Shown: piece after piece, positions 394 through 51,276 of the stretch
Layout of the letters: every line of letters begins with the position of its first letter
Position numbering within the stretch: the first letter of the stretch is position 1
DNA from: a virus
Lineage: Duplodnaviria > Caudoviricetes
IMG/VR virus record: IMGVR_UViG_3300039004_000002
Location: 1 to 53,289 of that record
Strand: one strand, 5' to 3'
Length of the DNA: 53,289 bases
Made by a program: the position numbers and the translations under genes
The notes under the pieces: generated by a model
Database searches by the model: none
What the model was told of the DNA's origin: nothing
What the model saw: the letters and a program-made list of their open reading frames with translations, nothing else

Positions 394-486
394 ATGGCTA
401 ACATCAGAACTCAATTACAAATCGCTAATGACTCATTCGCCAACGCTATGACCCTGATCGCGATGTTACGTGCAGCGCGAGGCTAA
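394..486 (+). CDS. 30-aa early peptide (MANIRTQLQ...)
   Basis: GAGGAC RBS upstream of ATG 394, directly after P1; the longer ORF call from 277 runs through the promoter. Confidence 0.55.
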   Translation: MANIRTQLQIANDSFANAMTLIAMLRAARG

Positions 487-490
487 GAGA

Positions 491-976
491 ATGAACCAGA
501 AGTTACTTGACAACATCCGATCTATGAACGAAGCTGAGTTGTATGCCGCTATATACAAGGACGCATTAACTGGCGCTAACAATCGACGCGCTTTCGACCA
601 GAAGAACGACTATTCAACTGTGGCTATTGTTGATATGGATTCGCTTAAATATCTGAACGACAAATATGGGCATCGCACAGGTGACCAGTACATGATCAAT
701 CTGGTGGACATACTGCGCACCCATTTCGGGGACGACAATGTCTATCGATTGGGAGGAGATGAGTTTGCGGTGACTTCGTATCTGAGTTGTGAAGCTCTTA
801 CTGTAAAGTTAACCCATATCCAGCGCAAAGTAGAATTCTTCACTTTTGGGACTGGGGTGTACTTGGCTGAAGCGGACGATCAGTTGAACAGGAATAAGGA
901 ACGACGTGAGAAGTGTGGTCAACGTGCATCACGAGGTGAGTGCCCACCTTGGGAAATCAAAAATATTTGCGCCTAG
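491..976 (+). CDS. GGDEF-domain diguanylate cyclase
   Basis: Motifs DALTGANNRRAF, DMDSLKYLNDKYGHRTGD and RLGGDEF; ATG 491 follows the stop of the upstream peptide. Confidence 0.92.
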   Translation: MNQKLLDNIRSMNEAELYAAIYKDALTGANNRRAFDQKNDYSTVAIVDMDSLKYLNDKYGHRTGDQYMINLVDILRTHFGDDNVYRLGGDEFAVTSYLSCEALTVKLTHIQRKVEFFTFGTGVYLAEADDQLNRNKERREKCGQRASRGECPPWEIKNICA

Positions 977-4829: not shown

Positions 4830-5248
4830 TTCTAGTGAAGGTACGGGCCGACGGAGTCGACTCGTACTACCTTGTGAATCAGATAACTCAAGTATATCAG
4901 AAAATAGCGAAAGAAGGCTTATCCCCTGAGAGTGTAGAAACCCTCACTGATAATGTGATAGTTGATCTGCACCCAGAACGAGAAACTCCTGAAACCTTCC
5001 TTACTAAATGCTGTCTTGAGTTTGAGATCACTCTTGCTGACTTGCGCGGGCCCGACAGGAAGAAGCGTATTGTCTCTATCCGAAAGGTGGTGTCTTATCA
5101 GCTTCGTAAGAAGTTCGATTTATCCCTTCCGGATATTGGCGACATGTTACATCGTGACCACACTAGCATCATCTACAACCTGGAGTCCGTCGAGAAGCAG
5201 CTTAAAGACGGTGGACCATTAATAAACCTACTTGAGAGGATTCAATAA
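4826..5248 (+). CDS. DnaA C-terminal (domain IV) HTH-containing protein
   Basis: ADLRGPDRKKRIVSIRKVVSYQLRKKFDLSLPDIGDMLHRDHTSII matches the Bac_DnaA_C pattern. Confidence 0.85.
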   Translation: MILVKVRADGVDSYYLVNQITQVYQKIAKEGLSPESVETLTDNVIVDLHPERETPETFLTKCCLEFEITLADLRGPDRKKRIVSIRKVVSYQLRKKFDLSLPDIGDMLHRDHTSIIYNLESVEKQLKDGGPLINLLERIQ

Positions 5249-6717: not shown

Positions 6718-7124
6718 AGATAGCTTTTGCATACCCACCTAATTTCCGGAAGATTGTAAAAGTCTTCCCAGCCGCAAGGGGTCATGGTGTCATTTACACA
6801 TACGGTGACACCATATTCAACCCTGGGCGCGTAGACATTCCACCTTCATTGCTTGCACATGAGGAAGTCCATTCCAAGCGACAGGGCACAAACCCGGATA
6901 TCATTGAGGAATGGTGGAATCGGTATCTTGTTGACAAGCAATTTCGCTTCGATGAGGAATTGCTTGCACATCAGGAGGAGTTTCGTTGGTATATTAACTC
7001 CAGCCTCAAAGAGAAGCGCGTCGCGCTCAACTACATTGCCCGCAGGCTGTCCTCCCCGCTATATGGGAAGCTGACAGATATCAAGCAGGCTAAAGCCATC
7101 CTTGAAAAGGTACACAAATCATGA
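6714..7124 (+). CDS. HEXXH zincin-like metallopeptidase
   Basis: LLAHEEVHSKRQ followed by FDEELLAH (third-ligand Glu region). Confidence 0.7.
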   Translation: MKIAFAYPPNFRKIVKVFPAARGHGVIYTYGDTIFNPGRVDIPPSLLAHEEVHSKRQGTNPDIIEEWWNRYLVDKQFRFDEELLAHQEEFRWYINSSLKEKRVALNYIARRLSSPLYGKLTDIKQAKAILEKVHKS

Positions 7125-7522
7125 CAGATCAAATCAACGAACATTTATTCAATTTTAAGCTGCCCATGTTTCCGAACCAGTCGATCAGCGAGAATGGTAT
7201 GCAGTGCGTGCTCGAGATGGATGGTATGCAGATGAAAGGTGTCACAGGTGGGCACCTTAGATTCGGCGCCAATGGATTCACCAATGTGGTCATTGAGTAT
7301 GAGGCAAGCTGTGCAGCAGAGTTCGCAGGGCACCTGGTAGCGCACATGACCGGATTCACGCATGAGGAGCAGCAGCTTCAGCTCGCTGAGATCTTTCGTG
7401 ATGTGAATAATGAGATCATGGCCGAGCTTGAATCGGAGGGTGCAAACTTGATGGACGAATATATGGCCCAAGCCGATTTCGTGCGCCGCATCATCGAATT
7501 GACAATTGAGAGAATTAAGTAA
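7121..7522 (+). CDS. hypothetical protein
   Basis: ATGA-coupled ORF. Confidence 0.75.
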   Translation: MTDQINEHLFNFKLPMFPNQSISENGMQCVLEMDGMQMKGVTGGHLRFGANGFTNVVIEYEASCAAEFAGHLVAHMTGFTHEEQQLQLAEIFRDVNNEIMAELESEGANLMDEYMAQADFVRRIIELTIERIK

Positions 7523-7525
7523 CTG

Positions 7526-7555
7526 TTGCGATACGAGCGCCTGACGCTGTATAGT
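7526..7555 (+). promoter_or_regulatory. putative promoter (TTGCGA-18-TATAGT) upstream of structured non-coding segment
   Basis: Directly after the stop at 7522; same TTGC class as the other promoters. Confidence 0.6.
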
Positions 7556-7561
7556 ATGCAA

Positions 7562-7822
7562 TGTCAGCCGGCGGAGTAACTGATAGCCTTCCCATACACC
7601 GGAAGTGAACCAGCCAGGACGCCGGACACCCGGGCACCAGCGGGATATGACAATCAATATATTGGTGCCGTAAACTGAGTGAATCAGATATGAGTGCAAG
7701 CGCCCAAGTCCCGGGCGGTCGGCGTGACCCGGCGAAGGTATATGTCACGATGTATTCGACTTGTACAAGGATCTGAGTAGCTTGCCCCAAGGTGGGCACC
7801 CGGGCATGGTTCTGGGTGTCTA
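7562..7822 (+). ncRNA. candidate ~260-nt structured ncRNA or long structured leader
   Basis: Only long gene-free stretch in a tightly coupled region; many nested helices, with G-U pairs consistent with the + strand (see findings). Confidence 0.55.
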
Positions 7823-7846
7823 CCTACTTAACAAAGAGGACCCAGT

Positions 7847-8173
7847 ATGAGCGGCGATGACCTTTATATGGACGCCCATCTTCTTAACGATGAACCGTCC
7901 AGAGAATTTCAAGCGGGTATGAAGCCTGCACGAAAACACAATCACTATTTCAAAGATGTAAACAACCTCACAGAAGTTGACGTGTATCGGGTTTGCCAAC
8001 TGTTCAATGTTGACGATCCGAGCGGAGCAATCCAACACGCCATCAAGAAACTTCTCCTTCCAGGTCAGCGTGGAGCTGGCAAAAATCGTCGCAAGGACAT
8101 TCAGGAAGCTATTGACACCTTGAAACGTCGGCTTGAGATGATGGACGAGGACGGGGAGGTTCCACCTACTTAG
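7847..8173 (+). CDS. conserved phage protein (DUF3310/SaV-like)
   Basis: HNHY..DVYRV..F....AIQHAIKKLL.PGQRG.K...DIQEA; GAGGAC RBS. Confidence 0.7.
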   Translation: MSGDDLYMDAHLLNDEPSREFQAGMKPARKHNHYFKDVNNLTEVDVYRVCQLFNVDDPSGAIQHAIKKLLLPGQRGAGKNRRKDIQEAIDTLKRRLEMMDEDGEVPPT

Positions 8174-8181
8174 AGACTACT

Positions 8182-8415
8182 ATGGACTATCAAGAATTCT
8201 TTGGGCGCTTAGCCTTCTTTGCCTTCCTGGGACTTATATGCTCAGGTGTCATTACTCACATTTTGATGAATGTTGAAGAGAAGCGCGGATTCCCCTTCTC
8301 CCAAGAATTCTGGAAGGAACTGAAAATTGGCGTGTGGGTACTTGTATTCGCATTTGGAATTGGTGTCGATGTTTGGCTTGTTATGTGCATCATCGACTGG
8401 CTAGGTACAGACTAA
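8182..8415 (+). CDS. two-TM membrane protein
   Basis: Two hydrophobic helices. Confidence 0.7.
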   Translation: MDYQEFFGRLAFFAFLGLICSGVITHILMNVEEKRGFPFSQEFWKELKIGVWVLVFAFGIGVDVWLVMCIIDWLGTD

Positions 8416-8957
8416 TGAACTATGGACAATCTAAATTCGCCTCATTTATTGAAGCATGTGCCAACGCTGCTGCTGGCCTGATCTTTTCTTATACGATACA
8501 AATCGTTCTTATCCATGCTTATGGCGTGGAAATGTCAAATACTACGGCGGCGCACTTTGTCTTCTGGTTTACGATCGCTTCTGTATTCCGCTCCTATGTT
8601 ATACGCCGAATCGGGAATCTCCCGTATTGGGCCCGTATACGCGAGCGTAGGCGCAAGGCTAAACTGGCTCGGGAATGTGCGGAGCGCGGTCATTTGCCGA
8701 TTAGCAGCATTACAGGGCACACGTATTGCGAGCACTGCGAAGACTTACTACATACAGACCCAAAGGCTGTTGAGGAATTCGAGCGCGATCCCTTTAGTAT
8801 TGAGCCAACGGTCACTCTTATCAAACAGAAAGAGGGTGAACGTACAATCGTTCTGAAGAACTGCTTTGCTGACGAACAACAAATACAAGAGTTCTTGAAT
8901 AGCGAGCGCGGTGAGCGTCTAGTGATGGATATCATTAATGGAAAAAGAATCAACTAA
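8415..8957 (+). CDS. membrane protein with Zn-knuckle and C-terminal tape-measure-like peptide
   Basis: TAATG coupling; N-terminal QSK.ASFIEACAN...RSYVIRR two-TM family; C..GH..CEHC; C-terminus resembles the TMP end. Confidence 0.75.
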   Translation: MNYGQSKFASFIEACANAAAGLIFSYTIQIVLIHAYGVEMSNTTAAHFVFWFTIASVFRSYVIRRIGNLPYWARIRERRRKAKLARECAERGHLPISSITGHTYCEHCEDLLHTDPKAVEEFERDPFSIEPTVTLIKQKEGERTIVLKNCFADEQQIQEFLNSERGERLVMDIINGKRIN

Positions 8958-9996: not shown

Positions 9997-10048
9997 CTAA
10001 GCGTATCATTATCACGGCCGGTGGCGGCATGAACGCGGAGTATTGGGC

Positions 10049-10549
10049 ATGGGTCCATCACAATTTATAGATCCCTTACTTAGAGAGAAAGAATTAAGCG
10101 AAGAAGAATTCCTTCTCAGAAAAGAATTTGTTCGCTGGTTCATGGAAACCAGGAACGCTTATGAAGCCTGTATCAAACTCGGATTCCTGGAAGCCTATGC
10201 TGTTGACTGGGCTAAAGCGTTCATGGCTGAAGGATATGTGCGCAGGCTTATATCTGAAGCTGAACGTGAGGAAGACACAGAAGAGGCCAGCTTAGAGCGA
10301 CAGCGTCGCTATAGGGCCCTGATGGAAAAAGAGGCGACATATTACGGCCCTGGATCGTCGCACGGCTCCAGGGTCTCTGCTATTGCCCACCTAATGAAAA
10401 TGGAGGGTATGGAAGCACCTGTTAAAACTGAAACTGAGTTTACTTATAAGGGTGGCGTGATGATGGTTCCCGCACTTACCAATCCAGACGAATGGGGCAA
10501 CCTTGCAGCCAAGTCTCAAGCACAATTGAAGGAAACTGTCAAGGATTAA
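10049..10549 (+). CDS. terS: terminase small subunit
   Basis: N-terminal HTH (EFVRWFMETRNAYEACIKLGF), RVSAIAHLMKMEGM, GGVMMVP; start of the late module; GGAG RBS before ATG 10049. Confidence 0.75.
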   Translation: MGPSQFIDPLLREKELSEEEFLLRKEFVRWFMETRNAYEACIKLGFLEAYAVDWAKAFMAEGYVRRLISEAEREEDTEEASLERQRRYRALMEKEATYYGPGSSHGSRVSAIAHLMKMEGMEAPVKTETEFTYKGGVMMVPALTNPDEWGNLAAKSQAQLKETVKD

Positions 10550-10650: not shown

Positions 10651-11022
10651 GTGAATGAAATGGGCGAAACCTTATCAAAATTAGTTGAAGCGGGTCTGGG
10701 CTATGTATGGTTTGTTATTCTTGCTGTATGGGGCGGAACGGTGAATTACCTGAGTCGTATAAAGCAAGGTAAAGTTGAAGCGTTTTCTTTCGTGGAGTTA
10801 ATGGGTGAATGGGCGGTCAGTGGGTTTGCGGGCTTACTGACGGCCTTTATATGTACCGAGATGGAAATGTCCTGGCACATGACAGCCTTCTTCACAGGTA
10901 TATCGGGGCATCTAGGTGGACGAGCTATTTACATGCTTGAGTCATATGCTAAAAGACATCTACCATTCCTTGATAAAGAAGTCCAGAAGCAGCGAACCAA
11001 AAAGGACGATGACAATGTTTGA
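10651..11022 (+). CDS. holin (LydA-like)
   Basis: Three TM segments, SGFAGLL and GISGHLGGRAI motifs, charged C-terminus, upstream of the endolysin. Confidence 0.85.
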   Translation: MNEMGETLSKLVEAGLGYVWFVILAVWGGTVNYLSRIKQGKVEAFSFVELMGEWAVSGFAGLLTAFICTEMEMSWHMTAFFTGISGHLGGRAIYMLESYAKRHLPFLDKEVQKQRTKKDDDNV

Positions 11023-11527
11023 TAAAGCATTCGATCGGGTATTTACCAATGAGGGCGGGTATCAGGATGATCCTGCTGATCGTGGGAACTGGACTTCTGG
11101 TGTTGTTGGGCAAGGGGAGTTGAAAGGTACAAAGTATGGCCTTGCAGCAATGACCTATCCCGACTTGGACATCAAGAACTTAACACTGGCAGAGGCCAAA
11201 GCTATTTACAAGCGTGATTGGTGGGACAAACTCGGAATGGAAAGTTTCCGTCCGGCAATGTCATATCAGATGTTTGATGCTGCTATCAATCACGGAATGT
11301 ACAATGCCACAAAGATCCTCCAATACGCCATAGGTGCAAAGGCGGATGGCATCATCGGTCCCAAGACGCGAGGCGCGGCTGCCAGTATGGAGCTCAACGA
11401 CTTGCTGATGTGTTTCCTGGCCGAGCGGCTTGTGTTTATGACAGATGTCCGCACCTGGGAGCGCTACGGGAAAGGGTGGGCACGACGTATCGCTCACAAT
11501 CTCAAACTGGCCTCAAACGACAACTAG
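11015..11527 (+). CDS. endolysin, glycoside hydrolase family 108 with PG-binding domain
   Basis: [41 protein letters not shown] (alternative start at 11009). Confidence 0.93.
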
Positions 11528-12174: not shown

Positions 12175-13728
12175 ATGCTTCCGGCAGTACAGACCCAGAC
12201 TCCAGAAGCGCCAGATGTAGTTTGGAGCCCATTAGACGGTTCCCAAGTCCTAGCGATATCCTGTCCCTGTAACCACATTCTATATGAGGGCACACGCGGC
12301 CCAGGTAAGACTGATGCTCAGCTCATGTACTTCCGACGCTTTGTTGGCATCGGATACGGACAGTTCTGGCGCGGTGTCATCTTCGATCGCGAATATAAAA
12401 ACCTTGACGACCTTATATCCAAGTCAAAACGCTGGTTCAGGCAGTTTGGGGATGGTGCCAAGTTTATCGCAAGCACAAGCCACCTGAAATGGATCTGGCC
12501 CACTGGGGAGGAACTTTGGTTCCGTGTAATGAAGACGGAACAAGACTATTGGAATTATCACGGGCACGAATTTCCATTCATTGGATGGAACGAGCTTACC
12601 AAGCAACCTAACTCCGAATTGTATGATATGGCGATGTCCTTGAACCGGACTTCGTTCCTACCTGACAAACACAGCCCGAAAGACCCTAAGACAGGTGAGA
12701 TGCAGATCCTGCCTGAAATTCCTCTTGTGGTATTCAGCACAACGAACCCTTATGGTGTTGGGCACAACTGGGTCAAGCAGCGTTTCATTGATGCAGCTCC
12801 TCCAGGTGTTATCGTACCTATCACAAGCGAAGTATTCAACCCGCGTACACAGCAGCGCGAACCCATTACCAAGACACAGGTGCGCCTGTTTGGGTCATAC
12901 AAAGAGAATATCTATCTATCCCCTGAATACATCTTAGAGCTGGAAAACATTCAGGACCCTAACAAGCGCCGAGCTTGGTTGTGGGGTGACTGGGATATCA
13001 CGAGCGGTGGCATGTTTGACGATGTGTGGTCAACTGAGCATAACATAGTCGAGCCTTTCCAAATTCCACCTGGTTGGAAGATCTTTCGTTCTTTTGACTG
13101 GGGGTCAAGTAAGCCATTCAGCGTTGGTTGGTGGGCTGAAAGTGACGGGTCAGATGTCATGCTTCCCAATGGCCAATGGAAGTCTACAGTACGAGGGGAT
13201 CTGTTTAGAATAGCAGAGTGGTATGGTTGGACTGGTGCAGCGAACCAGGGCGTCAAGATGCTCGCTACACAGATCGCAAAAGGAATCGTTGAACGAGAGA
13301 TCAGAATGGGCTATTATGGGCGGGTCAAAGCTGGCCCCGCTGATAGCTCTATCAACGATGTTGAGAATGGGAACTGCATTGCCACTGACATGGCGAAGAA
13401 AGTCACTATTAACGGGAAGCAGTATAAAGGGGTGACATGGACCCGAAGTATTAAGTCACCCGGCAGCAGAAAGAACGGCTGGGAAAAGATGCGTATAGCA
13501 ATCTTCAACGCTCAGCCTGATAATGGGCCAAGGGAATACCCGGGTCTGTTTGTGTTCCGTAACTGCCAGGACGGGTTCATAAGAACTGTGCCAAGCCTGT
13601 CACGTGATCCTAAAGATATGGACGATGTCAATACTGAGGATGAAGATCACGTAGCAGATGAGTCACGCTATGTTATACTATCGATGGGCGATCGCTTCTC
13701 TAGCGGGTCCACCACAGGTCACTTCTAA
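12175..13728 (+). CDS. terL: terminase large subunit
   Basis: GTRGPGKT (Walker A), IGWNELT, TTNPYGVGHNWVK, FDWGSSKPF, EDHVADESRY. Confidence 0.95.
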   Translation: MLPAVQTQTPEAPDVVWSPLDGSQVLAISCPCNHILYEGTRGPGKTDAQLMYFRRFVGIGYGQFWRGVIFDREYKNLDDLISKSKRWFRQFGDGAKFIASTSHLKWIWPTGEELWFRVMKTEQDYWNYHGHEFPFIGWNELTKQPNSELYDMAMSLNRTSFLPDKHSPKDPKTGEMQILPEIPLVVFSTTNPYGVGHNWVKQRFIDAAPPGVIVPITSEVFNPRTQQREPITKTQVRLFGSYKENIYLSPEYILELENIQDPNKRRAWLWGDWDITSGGMFDDVWSTEHNIVEPFQIPPGWKIFRSFDWGSSKPFSVGWWAESDGSDVMLPNGQWKSTVRGDLFRIAEWYGWTGAANQGVKMLATQIAKGIVEREIRMGYYGRVKAGPADSSINDVENGNCIATDMAKKVTINGKQYKGVTWTRSIKSPGSRKNGWEKMRIAIFNAQPDNGPREYPGLFVFRNCQDGFIRTVPSLSRDPKDMDDVNTEDEDHVADESRYVILSMGDRFSSGSTTGHF

Positions 13729-37830: not shown

Positions 37831-37859
37831 ATTATAACGCCTGAGCTATTGTCTCGCAA
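37831..37859 (-). promoter_or_regulatory. promoter for dpdA (TTGCGA-17-TATAAT)
   Basis: Perfect -10 with 17-bp spacer. Confidence 0.7.
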
Positions 37860-38751
37860 GTGCCATAAACTCGGCGCGAGTCTCAGACTCCTCGAGGAAG
37901 ACGCCCTTCAATGCTGTGGTCACTGTGTGATGCCCCTGCTGACAAATACCACGAGACTCCATACACATATGACGCGCCTTGATCATTACTGCAACACCCT
38001 TTGGCTCAAGATGTTTAAACAAAGCGTCAGCGATCTGGTTAGTGAGGCGCTCTTGTACTTGCAACCGTCGCGCATACATATCAGCAAGCCTTGACAGCTT
38101 CGACAGCCCTACAATCTTTCCGTTCGGAATATAGGCGATAGTTGCTGTGCCAAAGATGTCAGCCATGTGGTGTTCACACTTACTGTAGATTGGGATGTCT
38201 TTAACCACAACCATCTGGTCGTATTTCTCGCCACCGTCTTCGAACACCTTTAACAAGTCTTCAGGTTTCTTGCCGTAACCGCTGAACCAGTGTTGCAGTG
38301 CCTTAGCTACTCGCGTAGGTGTTTCTTTAAGCCCTTCACGTGAGGCGTCATCCCCTGTGAATTCAATCAATCTGACAATATGATCTTCAATACCCCCTTC
38401 AGCTGTACCCTCCCAAGGAAATACGACCCACTTACCCCTGTATGGGCACGCTGGGTCGGTCTTGTCAATCAGCGCCAGAAAAGGTTTGCCCGGGTATTCA
38501 TCACACCAGCGTTCCATTGTAGCGCCACTATCAATAATGTCATCGAAGAAGAAGTCTGCTTCATTTGGATCGTCAACCACTTCAAGATTGTAGTTGGCAT
38601 CCAATGCGTAAGCAGCAGGAATCCCACCTCTTGGAATGGCATAAAGCTTGCCTGGTTTTTTCTTATCAAGCCAACCTTGCTTAGCAAGAGTATCACCTAA
38701 AGCGAGGCACAAGTTTTCGATATCAGAATGGGTTAGAATTATCTGTGACAT
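37846..38751 (-). CDS. folE: type I phosphoribosyltransferase fused to GTP cyclohydrolase I
   Basis: N-terminal AIPRGG, FDDIIDSGAT, WVVFPWE; C-terminal ETPTRVA, SKCEHH, GLSKLSR, QVQERLT, HMCMESRG. Confidence 0.92.
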   Translation of the reverse strand: MSQIILTHSDIENLCLALGDTLAKQGWLDKKKPGKLYAIPRGGIPAAYALDANYNLEVVDDPNEADFFFDDIIDSGATMERWCDEYPGKPFLALIDKTDPACPYRGKWVVFPWEGTAEGGIEDHIVRLIEFTGDDASREGLKETPTRVAKALQHWFSGYGKKPEDLLKVFEDGGEKYDQMVVVKDIPIYSKCEHHMADIFGTATIAYIPNGKIVGLSKLSRLADMYARRLQVQERLTNQIADALFKHLEPKGVAVMIKARHMCMESRGICQQGHHTVTTALKGVFLEESETRAEFMALARQ

Positions 38752-38752
38752 T

Positions 38753-39244
38753 TTATACTCCGTAAGAGGCGTGGCATTTAGCAGTTTCCTCGATCAGCAC
38801 TTCAGTCAGTACGACGCCAGTGCCAGCGAGCTGTTGTGGACCAATTACCTTGACAAGATGCTCGGCCATGTTTTCAGCGGTGGGGTTGAAAGGTACCCAC
38901 ACAATAGATTCCTTCCACTTACCAAAGCCGTCATCCCCTCCGACAGCTTGTTTTCCAACTGCACCGTCAATGGCGCGTATCAGTGGATCCTTCTCCCAGG
39001 CTAGAAACTTGTGATCCCATTCGTCTTCAAGCCACATACACAGCTTCTCCTTGACGACACTGAAATCAATCACTCGACCAACGGTATCAAGACCTGAACC
39101 AAGCTCTTTGCTGATACGTGACTCATCCACAACACAAGTGAAGTGGACTCGATAATTGTGCCCGTGCAAGTGTTGGCACTTGCTTTCATGCCCTGTGACG
39201 CGATGCCCAGCGCAGATGTCGTGATAGCGATGTACTTTGTGCAT
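38753..39244 (-). CDS. queD: 6-carboxytetrahydropterin synthase
   Basis: AGHRV...CQHLHGHNY, DHKFL, PTAEN, ET. Confidence 0.92.
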   Translation of the reverse strand: MHKVHRYHDICAGHRVTGHESKCQHLHGHNYRVHFTCVVDESRISKELGSGLDTVGRVIDFSVVKEKLCMWLEDEWDHKFLAWEKDPLIRAIDGAVGKQAVGGDDGFGKWKESIVWVPFNPTAENMAEHLVKVIGPQQLAGTGVVLTEVLIEETAKCHASYGV

Positions 39245-39247
39245 TGA

Positions 39248-40678
39248 TTATTCCTCGTATAGGATGACTTCGGTTAGCTCGTTGATCATAAACGCTGTGC
39301 GCCGCATATAGCAGGGCCCACACTTGCCGCAATGCAACTCGCCATTCTTATAGCAGCTCCAGGTCAAGTGCATAGGTGCGCCAACACTGTGCCCCAGGGC
39401 GACGATTTCGTGCTTCATAAGATCACCCACTGGCATGAGTACGCGCACACGCTTACCGTCGCCAACAGCAAACGGAAGGATCTCATTAAAACGGCGAATG
39501 AACTCAGGCTCGTTATCTGGATAGGCACCTGCTTCCTCCATATTGTTACCGAGCACAATATAGTCGAATCCGTTGGCCTCTGCGTATGCTGTGGCCACAC
39601 TTAACATCACAAGGTTCCGCGCTGGGACCCATTCATGTGCAAACTCAGCACCAGCTTCGCCTCCAGCGATTTCACTATTCTTATCAAACAGTCTTGAGTC
39701 TTTAGGGTCATAGATGTTAAGTGGGAAAGCACGGACATTGACTTCCAATTCACGCGCAATTTCAAAGATCGCGCTGACTTCTTTTTCCTCAGCTCTGCAA
39801 CCATACTCAAAATGAAGCAGTTCCACGTCGTATCCCTGCTTCTTACAGACTGCGGCCGCAACAGTGCTATCAAGGCCACCGCTGGCAACTACTAGGGCGC
39901 GAGGTTTCTTTTCAGGATCTGGTACTTGCAAGAAGTCGGTCTGGATAATGAGCTCACTAGGACTCCAGCGATCGTCATACATAAAGCGATTCACTGTGTA
40001 AGGCTCAAGCGCAACAGGTGTCAAGTTATTAGGGAAGTATTCCTTGGCACTTGCAAAGAACACTCCAACATCTGTCTTCGCATACCAGACTGGTCTATAA
40101 TTGGCTGCGACCAATAACTGTTCTGGATATTGCTCATGTGCTCCCAGGATGGCAAAGCTGCCAACGATGTTTCGTACTGTATTGTCAAAGACAGCGTATG
40201 CAGCGTCCGCGTTCTCGAATAGCTGCCCCTGTACGCCGAGAGCTTCGACGATCGCAGCAGAGTCAATATCTGTGTCAACCTCGTGCGTCCGCAATTCCTT
40301 GTCGTTTGCTATCGTACCGTTATGCACAATAGACCAGGCGATGTTGCTGTAAGGTTGTTGGTCTTGCTTGCGCTTGTGACGTACATACTCAGTGGTCGGT
40401 TCAGCCCGGAAGTTACCAATGATGATTCCCTTATTGATTGTCTGTGCAAGGTCAGCCAGGATAGGTGTTTCAACTCCACCAACTTCGCAGCGCGTAACAT
40501 CTTTCAACTCGTCAGTCCATTTCTGTTCCCCGACCATATCATAGATCAGTTTCCATCCATAGCCATCACGCCCACGCGCACGACTGGCGGCCAGTATATG
40601 CGTGAGGATGTTTTCAGCCTTCAACGCCTTGTCAGGCGAGTCAATACGATTGAGTAGTGCTCCAATAATTGCGCACAT
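39248..40678 (-). CDS. queC: Gat-QueC: Ntn glutamine amidotransferase fused to preQ0 synthase
   Basis: N-terminal MC, RGRDG, RAEPT, VHNGTI, DSA; C-terminal SGGLDS, VPARN, YPD, SCY...HCGKCGPC. Confidence 0.93.
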   Translation of the reverse strand: MCAIIGALLNRIDSPDKALKAENILTHILAASRARGRDGYGWKLIYDMVGEQKWTDELKDVTRCEVGGVETPILADLAQTINKGIIIGNFRAEPTTEYVRHKRKQDQQPYSNIAWSIVHNGTIANDKELRTHEVDTDIDSAAIVEALGVQGQLFENADAAYAVFDNTVRNIVGSFAILGAHEQYPEQLLVAANYRPVWYAKTDVGVFFASAKEYFPNNLTPVALEPYTVNRFMYDDRWSPSELIIQTDFLQVPDPEKKPRALVVASGGLDSTVAAAVCKKQGYDVELLHFEYGCRAEEKEVSAIFEIARELEVNVRAFPLNIYDPKDSRLFDKNSEIAGGEAGAEFAHEWVPARNLVMLSVATAYAEANGFDYIVLGNNMEEAGAYPDNEPEFIRRFNEILPFAVGDGKRVRVLMPVGDLMKHEIVALGHSVGAPMHLTWSCYKNGELHCGKCGPCYMRRTAFMINELTEVILYEE

Positions 40679-41367
40679 TATTCAACTCCTAAGATTTTGT
40701 GAATTTGTAATTGAAGGATATAGCCGTTCTTGATACAACTATCTTTGACGGCCATCATGTTACGGTGATTCTGTGCAATGTTCTGTGAATCCATAGGCTG
40801 GAGATATACAGTCATCCCAGCAGGTGGACGCGCCACTTTTGGCGAAGCACTGTGGTCAAGTGCAAGAATAGGAAGCCCGTCTTTAGGATCAACGCTGTCA
40901 GCGTGCATCACGTACTTATAGCAGTTAGCCCGGGATGTCATTTTGGTATTGACGCTTCCGGTCTTAGGGCTGCACACCACAACGACACGGTCGTCAAGAT
41001 TCTTACTGGGAGGGAGTGTTCCATTAGTTTCGACTTGGACGCGGAAACCTGCTTTCAACAGTGTGTTAGCAAGAATCGAAATGTTCTGTCGAAAGGGTTC
41101 GCCCCCAGTGATGACCACAAGCCTTGGGCCTGCACATTGCTCGCTGACCATGGTGTTATAAATCTCTTCGAGGGACATACGCTGACGCCCTTGTGTATAC
41201 TCGGTGTCACAGCCAGGACATTGTAGGTTGCATCCAGCGAGGCGGATAAAGATTGCAGGGAATCCGGTGAAAGGACCTTCACCTTGAATGGTACGAAAGA
41301 TGGAGTGGACTTCTAATTCTTTGCCTGTGCTTGAGGCAATACTTTTTTCACGTTCTTGAGTGTTCAT
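40678..41367 (-). CDS. queE: 7-carboxy-7-deazaguanine synthase (radical SAM)
   Basis: TIQGEG, GCNLQCPGCDT, ITGGEP, ETNG, SPK, QIHK. Confidence 0.93.
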   Translation of the reverse strand: MNTQEREKSIASSTGKELEVHSIFRTIQGEGPFTGFPAIFIRLAGCNLQCPGCDTEYTQGRQRMSLEEIYNTMVSEQCAGPRLVVITGGEPFRQNISILANTLLKAGFRVQVETNGTLPPSKNLDDRVVVVCSPKTGSVNTKMTSRANCYKYVMHADSVDPKDGLPILALDHSASPKVARPPAGMTVYLQPMDSQNIAQNHRNMMAVKDSCIKNGYILQLQIHKILGVE

Positions 41368-45402: not shown

Positions 45403-46017
45403 TCACGAAATATATGGATCAGATTGCCATGGGCGAATTGTCACCGTTGGTGGTGCAACAGGGACTTCCCCTGTGTACTTAGCCTTATCAAGAATGTCAA
45501 GGCTGAGCTTCATTATCTCAAGGGCTTCTTTCGCGTGTCCGACCTTATGTAACAGCTCAGCTAGATTGTGATTAAGCCCACGTAACATTAGAGGCGGGCA
45601 GTCGGTATGCTCAATCAGGTATTCAATACGCTCAATCTCACTCTCGAACTTCTTCTTGTCTTGAGTACATTGGCGCAAAGTATTCTGAACAGCCATAGTC
45701 ACATCCTTCAGATAATTCTTTCTGACATAGTTGTGCTGTTTAGCCATCTGAGCGTAGATTTCACCTATGGTCTGATAGGCACGCATTTCCACCCAATTAT
45801 CTTCACGCCCTGTTTCATCATAGTTCTTACGTTTTACAGGGTCTTTCAAGACTTCATATGCGTGCTTGACTTCCTTGAACTTGTTTTCAGCATCGGGATC
45901 GTCTGGGTTCTTATCCGGATGCACCTTTTGGCTCATTGACTTATAAGCCTTCTTTAACTGCTCTGCGGTAGCGTTAGGTTCAACACCTAAGATTTCATAA
46001 AGCGTTTTATCTTCCAT
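45403..46017 (-). CDS. J-domain (DnaJ class C) protein
   Basis: LYEILGV...LKKAYK...HPDKN...FKEVKHAYEVL.D...RKNYD. Confidence 0.9.
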   Translation of the reverse strand: MEDKTLYEILGVEPNATAEQLKKAYKSMSQKVHPDKNPDDPDAENKFKEVKHAYEVLKDPVKRKNYDETGREDNWVEMRAYQTIGEIYAQMAKQHNYVRKNYLKDVTMAVQNTLRQCTQDKKKFESEIERIEYLIEHTDCPPLMLRGLNHNLAELLHKVGHAKEALEIMKLSLDILDKAKYTGEVPVAPPTVTIRPWQSDPYIS

Positions 46018-48685: not shown

Positions 48686-49627
48686 CTACATATCCACAGG
48701 ATCCCGGAACCCTTGAAACGTCGGGAAACGGGGCTTGTCTTTCACACCTATCGGAAAGAACTGAAACTTCGCAATCTTGCCAATAATTTGGTCCTGATTC
48801 TCAAAGAAATATCTACGCTCATCATGCGTCATTTTCCCAGGCGATACTTCTATTTCCTGATCCTTATGCAGCACAATAAGATCACCCATCTTCTCTTCTT
48901 TGAGAGCACGCCCACAAATAGTTCCGACCATACCGTTTGGCACCATGTTCTCTGCCAGCGTGGATCGTTCAGCGTAGCCGTGCGGGTTGTGCTTGAGCTC
49001 ATTCTGGTTTGACTGACCTTCTATTATGTGGGTGACCACAATTTCAGAATCCATGAATCGCTTCAACCTGAGATAATTTGATTCCTTTGCAGTGCAGCGC
49101 CCATACTTATAGGTCCCAGCCGGATCACGTAGAATAAGGCCTTCATACTGCTCATGCAAGTATTCAAGTTCAAGCTCATTGACTTCTTCCTGGGAAGAAA
49201 CACGCTCATACGGTATTACCCAGAGCCTGTCCTGGAGTTCGGGATACTCAGCAAACAGACATGACACCTTATTCACGAGCTGATGATAGCGCGTGCTGTA
49301 TGGCTCATGATTGTTTACTCCGTCAACTACATAGTCAAACAAGCACCAACGAGTCGGAATGACCCCTTTAATGGTACCAAGGGCACTTGTGGTCTCATTG
49401 CAGATCCCGTACCCAGTTATTCGATTGACAACCATCTCCCCATCAAACCCATTGAAACGCTCGTCACTGAAGAAGTTGGTGTTGAGCTCGTTCTTGAAGC
49501 GTTTCCCAGTGCGCCCGACAAGTCTGTTGTCAATGTTGAGCGCACGCACCCCGTCAATCTTGGGGAAGCACATATAAGGGAAAGCAGCTTTCTCGACTTC
49601 GTAATCGCAGGCTAGAATAGGTTTCAT
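48686..49627 (-). CDS. ATP-dependent DNA ligase
   Basis: PKIDGVRA, FDGE, LFD, EGLILR, YKYGR, KPRFP. Confidence 0.93.
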   Translation of the reverse strand: MKPILACDYEVEKAAFPYMCFPKIDGVRALNIDNRLVGRTGKRFKNELNTNFFSDERFNGFDGEMVVNRITGYGICNETTSALGTIKGVIPTRWCLFDYVVDGVNNHEPYSTRYHQLVNKVSCLFAEYPELQDRLWVIPYERVSSQEEVNELELEYLHEQYEGLILRDPAGTYKYGRCTAKESNYLRLKRFMDSEIVVTHIIEGQSNQNELKHNPHGYAERSTLAENMVPNGMVGTICGRALKEEKMGDLIVLHKDQEIEVSPGKMTHDERRYFFENQDQIIGKIAKFQFFPIGVKDKPRFPTFQGFRDPVDM

Positions 49628-50367
49628 GGAAGTCTCCGATGCTGATCGTACAGCTCCATAGAGTTCGGGAGGTACTTGCGCAGCATTTTATCGATCGCCA
49701 TGGCGTACTTCTGAGCCTCGATCTGCGCATGACTGTGGTCACGGAGAGATAGGAAGTGGAGTAGATTGTGCAAGTCCTGTTTCCAGAGCCAGTGTGTATA
49801 ATGGTTCACATGAAGGAATAGGCGTGCGTGCTCAGGCGCAACCCCTTCCGCTATAGCAGCAGAATATTCCATATAGCTCTTCTGGCACTGGTTATCAAGA
49901 CGGGATTTAAACTTGTCCTGAATTTCCTGGGGCAATGTATCTTCCTGCCCTTGCTTTGCGTTCACAGGCTTGCCGCCAACTACTTCGGGCACATACCACT
50001 CTTCAGGAAGCTGGATGTAACGCCCAGAGACTTCGTTGATCGTTGCTGTACGGTGGCGCACAAACTGCCTGGCCACAAAGATAGGCATCTTCATTTCAAC
50101 CCAGCACTCAATCATCTCGATTGGTGTGGTATGCTTATTCTTCATAAGATAGTTGCACAGCTTCAGATCTGCTTCACGTGTGCGCCCACTGTCCATGCTT
50201 TCGAAAGACATTCGAGCACTGTTAGCGGGATCAGTATCGTCCGCATCAAAGTCTTGATAAATGCGTCGCGTTGGTCCTGCCAGGTTGCGTAGTGCAACGA
50301 ACCCATGGTCCAGGACATCACAGGCAATAACTGCTTGGCCTTTATAGTTTGGTTCCGGATTGGTCAT
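49624..50367 (-). CDS. thyX: FAD-dependent thymidylate synthase
   Basis: SARMS, HTTP.E, RQFVRHRTATINEVSGRY, LR..SHAQ.E. Confidence 0.95.
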   Translation of the reverse strand: MTNPEPNYKGQAVIACDVLDHGFVALRNLAGPTRRIYQDFDADDTDPANSARMSFESMDSGRTREADLKLCNYLMKNKHTTPIEMIECWVEMKMPIFVARQFVRHRTATINEVSGRYIQLPEEWYVPEVVGGKPVNAKQGQEDTLPQEIQDKFKSRLDNQCQKSYMEYSAAIAEGVAPEHARLFLHVNHYTHWLWKQDLHNLLHFLSLRDHSHAQIEAQKYAMAIDKMLRKYLPNSMELYDQHRRLP

Positions 50368-50845
50368 TTAAGAACTCCCGTATCTGTTGGTCTTTGTATT
50401 CGTCACGCGCTTGCCTCATGTTGCGTCGCGCTTTACGATCACAAATATTGTTGACGACATACCTGGCATCCTCTTTATCAGAATGACCTTTTACATGCTT
50501 CAATCTGATGTGTAAACTATGTTCTTCACAGAACGATTCATAGTGTGCTACCAGGTTCATTTCTTGTTCCGTGATGCTTTGTCTCTGCCTGCGAAGGGCG
50601 TCGATAGCGGGCTGGCAATCAGTCTGCAGAAGCACGGAGTCATTCTGCAACACCAGTTCGGACTTGCGTGCAGCGTGTAAAGCATTCAGAAGCGCCATGA
50701 TCTCTGCGGCAATGTTGTTTTCGACAATACCTTTAAGAACACCGTCTCCGCCCATCTTTCCACGCTGCGACGCAATCCAAAAACCATAACCGGCTTTCCC
50801 TGTGTCGGGACAGAAAGAAGCATCGGCTATGATTGTCACCCACAT
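50342..50845 (-). CDS. ribonuclease H family protein
   Basis: ADAS, NNIAAE, QTDC, HVKGH, N.ICD. Confidence 0.88.
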   Translation of the reverse strand: MWVTIIADASFCPDTGKAGYGFWIASQRGKMGGDGVLKGIVENNIAAEIMALLNALHAARKSELVLQNDSVLLQTDCQPAIDALRRQRQSITEQEMNLVAHYESFCEEHSLHIRLKHVKGHSDKEDARYVVNNICDRKARRNMRQARDEYKDQQIREFLNDQSGTKL

Positions 50846-51276
50846 TAACTGGACTCCTTCGCCTTGTTTTTGGCGGGGAGTACAATCTCCAGACCGGGGC
50901 TTCCAGGTTTGATAATCAAGCATTGGTCGAACAACTGCTTCTGATCTTCCGTCAACTTGTTATACTCAGCTTTCGCGAGCTCTGGTTTGTAGCGCACCAA
51001 GTCATCTGGACGCATACCATCTTCGCGGAGCTTTTCCTTCAAGGCGTTAAACGCACCAACATCGATATCACGGTTGATATTGTGCTTACCTTTTAACACA
51101 TATCCATCCGCCAGATCATAGTTGTTTGTTCCTTCTTTTGGATCGTCGAACGCCAGGTCGAATATCTTTTTCCGTAGCAAGGACTCTTTGGCCTTCAGGA
51201 TTTTTAAATCCGCCGCCATCTTGTACCATTCGGAAAGCATGGCCTGGGTCAATTCATTCTCAGGTATCTCAGCCAT
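50845..51276 (-). CDS. conserved phage hypothetical protein
   Basis: TAATG coupling; PKEGTN, KPEL...Y, IKPGSP.L. Confidence 0.8.
   Translation of the reverse strand: MAEIPENELTQAMLSEWYKMAADLKILKAKESLLRKKIFDLAFDDPKEGTNNYDLADGYVLKGKHNINRDIDVGAFNALKEKLREDGMRPDDLVRYKPELAKAEYNKLTEDQKQLFDQCLIIKPGSPGLEIVLPAKNKAKESS

Follow-up and report, generated by a model that had tools for sequence, protein, structure and literature searches.

The window analysed here, the whole 53,289-nucleotide (nt) stretch of the viral record IMGVR_UViG_3300039004_000002 (Caudoviricetes), contains on its + strand a 324 nt gap (7523–7846) between an open reading frame (ORF) at 7121–7522, with its stop codon at 7520–7522, and a second ORF at 7847–8173. 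A preliminary description, made from the letters of this stretch alone, had singled out a gap of 320 bp amid otherwise overlapping genes as the seat of a promoter-driven, highly structured RNA. The gap is real, and the four ORFs on its 5' side each overlap by 4 nt. Comparison with homologous loci shows that it encodes a conserved structured RNA of about 265 nt, read from the + strand and extending approximately from 7560 to 7826, which belongs to an uncatalogued phage family. The evidence is strongest for a hairpin domain and a pseudoknot core in the 5' part of the RNA, where paired positions covary, and is weaker for a three-way junction and a terminal hairpin in the 3' part.

On the + strand the RNA is preceded by a helicase and small genes and is followed by the gene of a 108-amino-acid (aa) protein, a DUF7220 gene, a RusA-like nuclease and the small terminase (10043–10549), after which come an endolysin (10916–11527), the large terminase (12175–13728) and the structural genes, co-directional up to 32786. 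This position, at the entry to a co-directional late-gene unit, is common to all relatives, and in the homologous loci the RNA always has the orientation of the downstream genes. The large terminase shares 81.4% protein identity with that of Alteromonas phage vB_AcoS-R7M (Queuovirinae, Amoyvirus) and about 71% with those of Vibrio phages of the Queuovirinae. Because GTP cyclohydrolase I (FolE), QueD, a glutamine amidotransferase–QueC fusion (GATase–QueC) and a QueE-like radical-SAM protein, together a full precursor pathway of 7-deazaguanine, are encoded on the minus strand (37846–41367), the phage, a relative of R7M, can be placed among those with 7-deazaguanine in their DNA.

Homologs of the RNA were collected along several routes. 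The 108 aa protein led to 62 loci, from which nhmmer with the gap as query picked three (L004, L027 and L003). A DNA pattern of the core retrieved eight stretches from viral contigs, all of them true. A looser viral pattern retrieved 28, of which seven were true and 21 were a chance match inside the coding region of one phage family, while a third yielded 34 stretches with 24 chance matches and two new copies. In metagenome contigs 12 of 46 pattern stretches were true and the other 34 arose by chance; none of the 27 stretches from bacterial contigs, taken as one genome per species, was true by nhmmer. A covariance model built on the 5' domain (R1) contributed L007 and L029 out of 75 sources and, out of 65 more loci reached via a profile of the downstream protein, L219, L221 and L249/L250. 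Locus L021 (E 0.18) was excluded from the family. Since exact patterns and one neighbour gene were the basis of the collection, copies in which the core motif is preserved are overrepresented in the sample, and the spread of the family is certainly underestimated.

The 20 further copies give 21 distinct rows, which come from uncultured phages and from the cultured phage R7M. Seven full-length window-like copies and one near-identical variant form a first group, and a second consists of five copies that are shorter, down to about 185 nt in L007, or more divergent. The third group comprises eight copies of a large variant of 600–900 nt (L066, L134, L159, L176, L182, L072, L129 and L146), which has in common with the window the closing helix of the hairpin domain, the pseudoknot core and one hairpin loop, and which contains a further several hundred nucleotides with blocks conserved among its members. 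In the R7M record R1 matches 4981–5102 with 98.5 bits; the RNA there occupies an unannotated 411 nt gap between CDS 13 and CDS 14, and the gene order is as in the window. No convincing copy was found in three named Vibrio Queuovirinae, which gave one weak match inside a coding region. At the corresponding place Vibrio phages VpKK5 (L202, 3297–3568) and 1.117.O (L203, 4309–4575) have gaps of about 270 nt that bear no relation to the RNA and are filled by short repeats, G-rich and C-rich, in inverted runs.

Two alignments were used to assess covariation, for which the preliminary description had proposed to look in related phages. The first (A2) aligns eight 5' domains by MAFFT alone, with no fitting to a structure; the structure itself was written from the window coordinates. 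In it 87.5% of the cells pair compared with 74.6% after shuffling, and both sides change in 16 of the 31 pairs compared with 7.8. None of 500 shuffles matches any of the five measures, and sliding the partners by one to three columns reduces pairing to 28–48%. The second (A7) holds all 21 rows and is model-fitted, so that it leans towards the nested helices, although not towards helices H1 or H3 described below. Here 90.3% of the cells pair (66.3% when shuffled) and 23 of 30 pairs change on both sides (15.0 when shuffled), with none of 500 shuffles reaching the observed values and the slid versions falling to 32–45%; a 20-row version behaves alike. Strong compensatory change is thus found in the homologs. 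The cells include 22 G–U and ten A–C combinations out of 461, and this excess of G–U favours the + strand. The earlier assignment of the structured RNA to that strand is borne out by the same excess, by sequence variants that keep wobble pairs and by the direction of the promoter and the genes.

The hairpin domain (7568–7625) is built from three covarying helices that were absent from the preliminary description. In H2 (7568–7573/7620–7625) all six pairs change on both sides and 97% of the cells pair; in H2b (7580–7582/7611–7613) the same is true of all three pairs, with 100% of the cells paired, and in H2c (7588–7592/7601–7605) of all five, with 93%. The picture on A2 is alike.

The pseudoknot core follows directly (7629–7669). 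Its first stem, H3 (7629–7632/7641–7644), is nearly invariant and is paired in 97.6% of the cells; one of its four pairs changes on both sides (in L029) and two change on one side to a wobble. The 8 nt loop of H3 is itself the 5' strand of the second stem, H4 (7633–7640/7662–7669), where all eight pairs change on both sides and more than ten stem sequences occur in the 21 rows. This helix had been proposed from the window alone and is confirmed. As H3 and H4 cross, the core is an H-type pseudoknot. A 17 nt A/U-rich single strand (7645–7661) links H3 to the 3' strand of H4 and is better conserved than any other unpaired part of the family. A candidate helix H1 (7563–7566/7648–7651), which H4 would also cross, would enclose the 5' domain, with an extra pair possible at 7562/7652. 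It is complementary in the window, but only 72.6% of the cells pair, none of its four pairs changes on both sides and it is broken in six rows (L066, L134, L159, L221, L219 and L249).

A pseudoknot had already been suspected, and one does exist, yet it is formed by other strands than those first proposed. All of the helices drawn from the window by hand are fully complementary there, including the crossing helix 7607–7615/7803–7812 on which the earlier pseudoknot was built; the comparison does not clearly lift this helix above chance. Between the loop and the junction the best complementarity in eight sequences is 4–6 bp, and 5–97% of loop shuffles equal it. A shorter loop-to-junction pairing (7607–7612/7807–7812) was dropped: it has no per-sequence support, and the apparent compensatory case in L067 is off register.

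Near-identical relatives point to the same structure and mark its borders. A 1115 nt DNA contig of run X4 reproduces 7490–7851 at 97.5% identity, with nine differences and two one-base indels. To the left 141 nt are exchanged for 129 other letters and the gene there is replaced, and after 7851 a stretch of 88 nt gives way to 13 letters; the following 212 nt, in the next gene, show 18 differences (91.5% identity). The likeness of a contig of run X2 also ends left of 7487. The stretch 7490–7525 (+), upstream of the promoter, is thus still part of the conserved module and marks the left joint of a mosaic, the two DNA-run contigs parting from the window to the left of 7487–7490. The promoter, the RNA and the next start codon therefore move as a single module that is better conserved than the adjoining genes. 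The X4 differences that fall into helices (7697, 7765, 7801 and 7819) keep the pairing as a + strand wobble or improve it. The indels, a 1 nt deletion at 7710 and a 1 nt insertion after 7784, break every frame across the gap, for which reason the minus-strand ORFs of 94 and 184 aa that span it are not taken as genes. In the metatranscriptome library X12 a single 212 nt contig lies wholly on 7574–7785, a weak hint that the body of the RNA is more abundant as RNA than its flanks.

The evidence for the 3' half is weaker, because MAFFT gave no alignment and the argument rests on per-sequence complementarity without a shuffle control; neither for the 3' domain (three sequences) nor for the terminal hairpins (eight) could a usable register be obtained from MAFFT or RNAalifold. 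The minimum free energy (MFE) folds of the window and, independently, of L123 both contain a multi-branch domain closed by a long helix and then a terminal hairpin. In the window the domain is a three-way junction (7684–7776, +) with a closing helix composed of 7684–7689/7771–7776 and 7694–7700/7760–7766 and with two hairpins, 7701–7705/7713–7717 and 7723–7728/7744–7749. Fully complementary counterparts of other sequence occur in the same order in L123 and L003, which supports the two segments of the closing helix and the first hairpin as originally drawn. The second had been drawn as 7718–7728/7744–7760. Its inner six pairs hold, with changed-stem counterparts complementary at five of six or five of seven positions in L065, L067, L068 and L071, and its loop is recognizable by eye in the large variant; the 2 bp cap proposed for it is broken by a change at 7738. 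The variants at 7697 and 7765 leave the junction pairs intact as wobbles. The junction is nevertheless optional, since the short member L007 is without the whole domain.

Between the junction and the 3' end a small hairpin, H8 (7781–7784/7788–7791), is weakly indicated: it is complementary, L123 has a 5 bp hairpin at the corresponding place and the X4 insertion falls into its loop. A helix proposed earlier for this region, 7783–7787/7794–7798, finds no support and excludes the terminal hairpin H9 (7794–7801/7814–7821), which the MFE fold extends to 7790–7804/7811–7825. H9 has the more regular record. A perfect hairpin of 5–10 bp is present in all eight homologs examined, each with a different stem, and in all eight the loop (7802–7813 in the window) contains an AUG (7806–7808) within a conserved short motif. 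The X4 variants at 7801 and 7819 lie in this stem. H9 stands 25–45 nt before the next start codon and just 5' of the next ribosome-binding site. By eye, a 9 bp stem is followed by a run of U in L003, and the tails of L123, L007, L067 and L071 are partly U-rich.

The promoter that had been recognized as TTGCGA-18-TATAGT is found at 7526–7555 on the + strand, with a −35 hexamer at 7526–7531, an 18 nt spacer and a −10 hexamer at 7550–7555. It is of the σ70 type, and its position predicts a transcription start near 7560–7563. A consensus scan gives nine of 12 matching positions; the score alone is not above chance, three sites being found in 7000–8500 compared with 2.0 expected. What recommends the promoter is its conserved position before the RNA: by eye, a hexamer pair lies at equal distance 5' of it in L003, L065, L068, L071, L067, L221 and L249, and both promoter variants of the near-identical relatives (7544 and 7545) fall in the spacer. 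The conservation extends some five bases past the −35 hexamer into the spacer (7526–7540 in the window, and in L003, L065, L068 and L071) despite very different RNA bodies. This may be an operator or activator site lying over the promoter.

The single-sequence tests (folding energy, Rfam and tRNA searches) are all negative, and it is the comparative evidence that decides on the reality of the RNA. Rfam 15 (4227 models) gives no match across the whole window at gathering thresholds, and around the gap (7400–7950) at E ≤ 10 it returns one miRNA model only (E 4.7), with no preQ1 riboswitch of class I, II or III, no c-di-GMP riboswitch of class I or II and no group I or II intron; the intron models have no match elsewhere in the window either, and those of ROOL and GOLLD match neither the window nor the homologous loci. 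Searches with Rfam on 12, two and six homologous loci returned tRNAs and chance rows only. Neither tRNA nor tmRNA genes are called by ARAGORN in the window. The earlier view that this is neither a tRNA nor a recognized riboswitch thus stands, the Rfam comparison that was asked for having produced no family. The MFE is ordinary in comparison with shuffled controls, and judged by it alone the finding would fail: for 7560–7846 on the + strand z is −1.42, with 19 of 200 shuffles folding equally well, for 7556–7825 on the same strand it is −0.62, and for 7560–7846 on the minus strand −0.72. RNA-length cuts of eight homologs range from +0.66 to −3.01 with a mean of −1.28 (60 dinucleotide shuffles each). 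The only match that BLASTN returns for 7300–8200 among 50,697 phage records is one of 149 nt between the downstream gene and a Delftia phage.

The first downstream gene (7847–8173, +) has a purine-rich ribosome-binding site near 7834–7840, and its 108 aa product contains a conserved domain of about 75 residues. Of PHROG 2452 and related families it matches the C-terminal part alone; it belongs to no Pfam or NCBIfam family and has no PDB sequence match below E 0.2. Its 230 relatives in the protein collection carry no informative name ('hypothetical protein' at most). The AlphaFold model consists of three helices with a pLDDT of 78 and has no PDB fold match at E ≤ 0.001. As the domain is N-terminal or free-standing in other phages, nothing is missing from the protein. 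For the product of the upstream ORF (7121–7522) no relative in viral contigs and no family was found.

The downstream gene is not a constant companion of the RNA. In six of 11 loci the gene that comes next belongs to the 108 aa family, and in the other five it is one of five unrelated genes, encoding an unrelated 203 aa protein, a MazG-like protein, a protein with a weak match to a Tat signal, a 210 aa protein and a 232 aa protein inserted before a homolog of the 210 aa protein. The 108 aa family in turn mostly occurs without the RNA, which is present within the fetched flanks in five of 62 and four of 65 loci. The first of these observations disfavours a gene-specific riboswitch and fits control of an operon better than that of a single gene, and the second disfavours an obligate RNA–protein pair. 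The original suggestion of a noncoding RNA or a leader for 7847 therefore keeps its general form, as an RNA gene or a leader of the downstream genes, while its reference to 7847 in particular is weakened, five of the 11 loci having another gene there and the larger variant being followed by tRNA genes. Two readings are left: the RNA either leads the entire unit downstream of it or is a gene in its own right with a fixed place in the genome.

After the large variant come the genes of tRNA-Pro, tRNA-Thr and tRNA-Leu. In L066 the core motif lies at 205 and the first tRNA at 818, and L159 and L072 are alike. Downstream of the large variant in L146 (4311–4428) and L129 (3657–3767) there are also tRNA matches of 118 and 111 nt, about 40 nt above normal, which ARAGORN does not call and which may contain an insertion or intron.

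Farther from the RNA, the minus strand of the replication arm encodes a DnaJ-domain protein (45403–46017), a ThyX thymidylate synthase (49624–50367) and an RNase H-like protein (50342–50923). At 470–976 (+) a 168 aa ORF matches the first half of a GGDEF (diguanylate cyclase) domain (model positions 4–87 of 161, E 7.9e-15). A core match of R1 inside this ORF (720–753, +; 13.4 bits, E 0.029) was taken as chance. The GGDEF-like gene is present in two of five RNA-bearing records, that is, also in the closest relative (L195, in the contig of L003), but in neither R7M nor the phage with the large variant, and a tie between it and the RNA was dropped for this reason.

We infer, with a rough probability of 0.45, that the RNA acts in cis, as a leader by which read-through into the late region is controlled. 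It would be transcribed from the σ70-type promoter at the head of the unit of terminase, lysis and structural genes, and the pseudoknot domain together with the terminal hairpin would set the share of transcription, or of translation, that continues into this unit. The mode could be conditional termination or antitermination, either through the binding of a factor or ligand or through an action on RNA polymerase such as that of the put RNA of phage HK022, and the terminated product would persist as a stable small RNA. We slightly prefer a cis-acting leader because the RNA is always found at the entry to the late genes, because the hairpin resembles a terminator in several members, most clearly in L003, and because the conserved module includes the next start codon.

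Several observations weigh against a read-through leader. Termination control is not demonstrable in the window, as no run of U follows H9 and no + strand terminator is called in 7000–8500. No alternative pairing that could serve as an antiterminator is conserved, the one proposed earlier being confined to the window and, partly, L123. The size range of about 185–900 nt, the free exchange of peripheral domains and the place of the large variant before tRNAs recall ROOL and GOLLD rather than a leader. The X12 contig, the sole one from an RNA library, covers the RNA body and fits a discrete stable RNA at least equally well, and co-orientation with the downstream genes is the default in a phage arm in which all genes run one way.

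Two known systems come close to such a leader. According to the abstract of PMC9378689, HK022 put suppresses pausing and termination and its transcript acts by itself. Like put, the RNA described here is structured, immediately follows a phage promoter where a long operon begins and needs no dedicated neighbour gene. The put RNA is about 70 nt long and consists of two stem-loops with no known pseudoknot, whereas the present family spans 185–900 nt and combines an H-type pseudoknot with multi-branch domains; an action on the polymerase is suggested here purely by analogy. The PR' leader of phage lambda (the 6S RNA ending at tR') likewise consists of a promoter and a short terminated RNA followed by lysis and packaging genes, an order that recurs in the window. 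It differs in that no need for a conserved tertiary fold is known and in its dependence on Q, whose gene lies just upstream. In the present family the X4 relative has another gene upstream but the same promoter and RNA.

The strongest alternative, which we regard as a real though tentative possibility, is a stand-alone stable RNA that acts in trans, as a protein scaffold or sponge, an anti-defence RNA, a ribozyme or a self-assembling particle in the manner of ROOL and GOLLD. Its transcription would merely take place where the late region begins, and its release would be due to the terminal hairpin or, for the large variant, to the processing of the tRNAs. Such a role would suit the complex conserved architecture, with its pseudoknot and invariant unpaired linker, the gain and loss of whole domains between about 185 nt (L007) and 600–900 nt, the position of the large variant directly 5' of the three tRNA genes, the terminator-like end in L003, the restriction of the RNA-library contig to the RNA and the inconstancy of the following gene. 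It fits less well with the absence of any evident partner protein, the commonest neighbour gene being far more often without the RNA (five of 62 and four of 65), with a hairpin that always adjoins the next ribosome-binding site and with a window copy that has no terminator to free it. ROOL and GOLLD (10.1101/2024.12.08.627333) are large ornate RNAs that often occur in prophages close to tRNA genes. The present family resembles them in its elaborate conserved structure and phage setting and, as regards the 600–900 nt variant, in large size and tRNA neighbours. It differs in having no Rfam match and in a window copy of only about 265 nt in a genome stretch with no tRNA genes.

The setting in 7-deazaguanine phages invites two further proposals. 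One, rather unlikely in our view, is that of a new large pseudoknotted RNA class peculiar to phages with 7-deazaguanine DNA, which would read the state of the pathway or of the modified genome and gate the packaging, lysis and structural genes. The other, which we consider unlikely indeed, is a sensor in the manner of a riboswitch, which would respond to preQ0, preQ1 or a related 7-deazaguanine intermediate and couple late expression to DNA modification. An H-type pseudoknot with an A/U-rich third strand is the topology of the preQ1-I aptamer, and the core shares with preQ1 riboswitches and other H-type pseudoknot aptamers a short stem, a loop that pairs with a downstream strand and an A/U-rich linker, a likeness of topology only. 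The window moreover encodes FolE, QueD, GATase–QueC and the QueE-like enzyme, and the RNA occurs in phages that make 7-deazaguanine: QueC is present in all five of the large RNA-bearing records and in two of five RNA-less records with the same neighbour gene, a contrast that is small and confounded by common descent. Against a sensor stand the missing preQ1 match even at E ≤ 10, the location of the que genes about 30 kb away on the other strand (37846–41367) rather than downstream, where the genes are varied, and the three named Vibrio Queuovirinae without a convincing copy. The RNA is also far larger than any preQ1 aptamer, its second stem of 5–8 bp and its linker of 17 nt lying within a much larger molecule.

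Quite unlikely as well is the two-state switch put forward in the preliminary description, by which 7813–7821 would pair either locally in H9 or over a long range with the core (7624–7632) by means of a 10 nt direct repeat (7627–7636 and 7797–7806). The repeat is exact, the window offers full complementarity for either pairing and, in L123, the hairpin's 3' arm can by eye also pair with the invariant core if a 2 nt bulge is allowed. The repeat is, however, peculiar to the window and its near-identical relatives, and a switch built on it is not conserved. The long-range helix (7624–7632/7813–7821) excludes both H3 and H9, destroying the conserved stem 7629–7632/7641–7644, and by eye neither L003 nor the second subfamily shows anything comparable, the same being true of L065, L067, L068 and L071. 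The change of U to C at 7819 in X4 turns a wobble into a Watson–Crick pair in the local hairpin and creates a mismatch in the long-range helix.

The AUG in the loop of H9 opens a candidate upstream ORF of 14 codons (7806–7850, +) whose stop overlaps the start codon of the gene at 7847. H9 might then present the start of a short leader peptide, the translation of which would open the hairpin and couple to this gene, a proposal that appears very doubtful. The loop AUG recurs in all eight homologs, the overlap of stop and start is seen by eye also in L067, and the module conserved in X4 ends at 7851, just past the ORF stop. On the other hand no consistent ribosome-binding site precedes the AUG, which may be a mere part of the conserved loop motif. 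Neither the length nor the sequence of the peptide is conserved, with short ORFs of 5–18 codons (by eye) in the other homologs and a frame that continues into the next gene in L065 and L068, and 200 nt of conserved structure upstream would be left unexplained. The last proposal, that there is no RNA element and that the gap is due to chance, to a decayed or split gene with an intron or to a DNA site such as an origin or packaging site, could appeal to the ordinary MFE stability, to the match of the downstream protein to only the C-terminal part of longer PHROG profiles, which first hinted at a split gene, and to the minus-strand ORFs, but it is refuted, as far as sequence comparison reaches, by the compensatory changes in 23 of 30 pairs together with the wobble-keeping variants, by the frame-breaking indels in a close relative and by an upstream ORF without relatives, a complete downstream domain and the lack of a group I or II intron match, which also led us to reject a split gene.

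The family appears to be new: it corresponds to no Rfam family and full-text searches of the literature found no description of it, although it may already be listed under another name among the candidate motifs of discovery papers. In the searched passages of the R7M paper (PMC8265664) the words 'noncoding', 'intergenic' and 'promoter' do not occur. As the family is present in this cultured and published phage–host pair (R7M and Alteromonas confluentis), its function is directly testable. Its useful traits are a compact, very well supported core, peripheral domains that come and go, and a fixed place at the late-gene entry of a 7-deazaguanine lineage. It is rare for a new family of large, richly covarying RNAs to be found, and each of the earlier ones, among them riboswitch classes, ROOL, GOLLD, OLE and the guide RNAs of IscB and TnpB, has led to new biochemistry. 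Should the RNA prove to control late transcription, it would join put as the second kind of phage RNA with that known function. Should it act in trans, it would provide a small and tractable relative of the enigmatic large phage RNAs, and if a 7-deazaguanine checkpoint should prove true, it would constitute an RNA link between DNA modification and late development.

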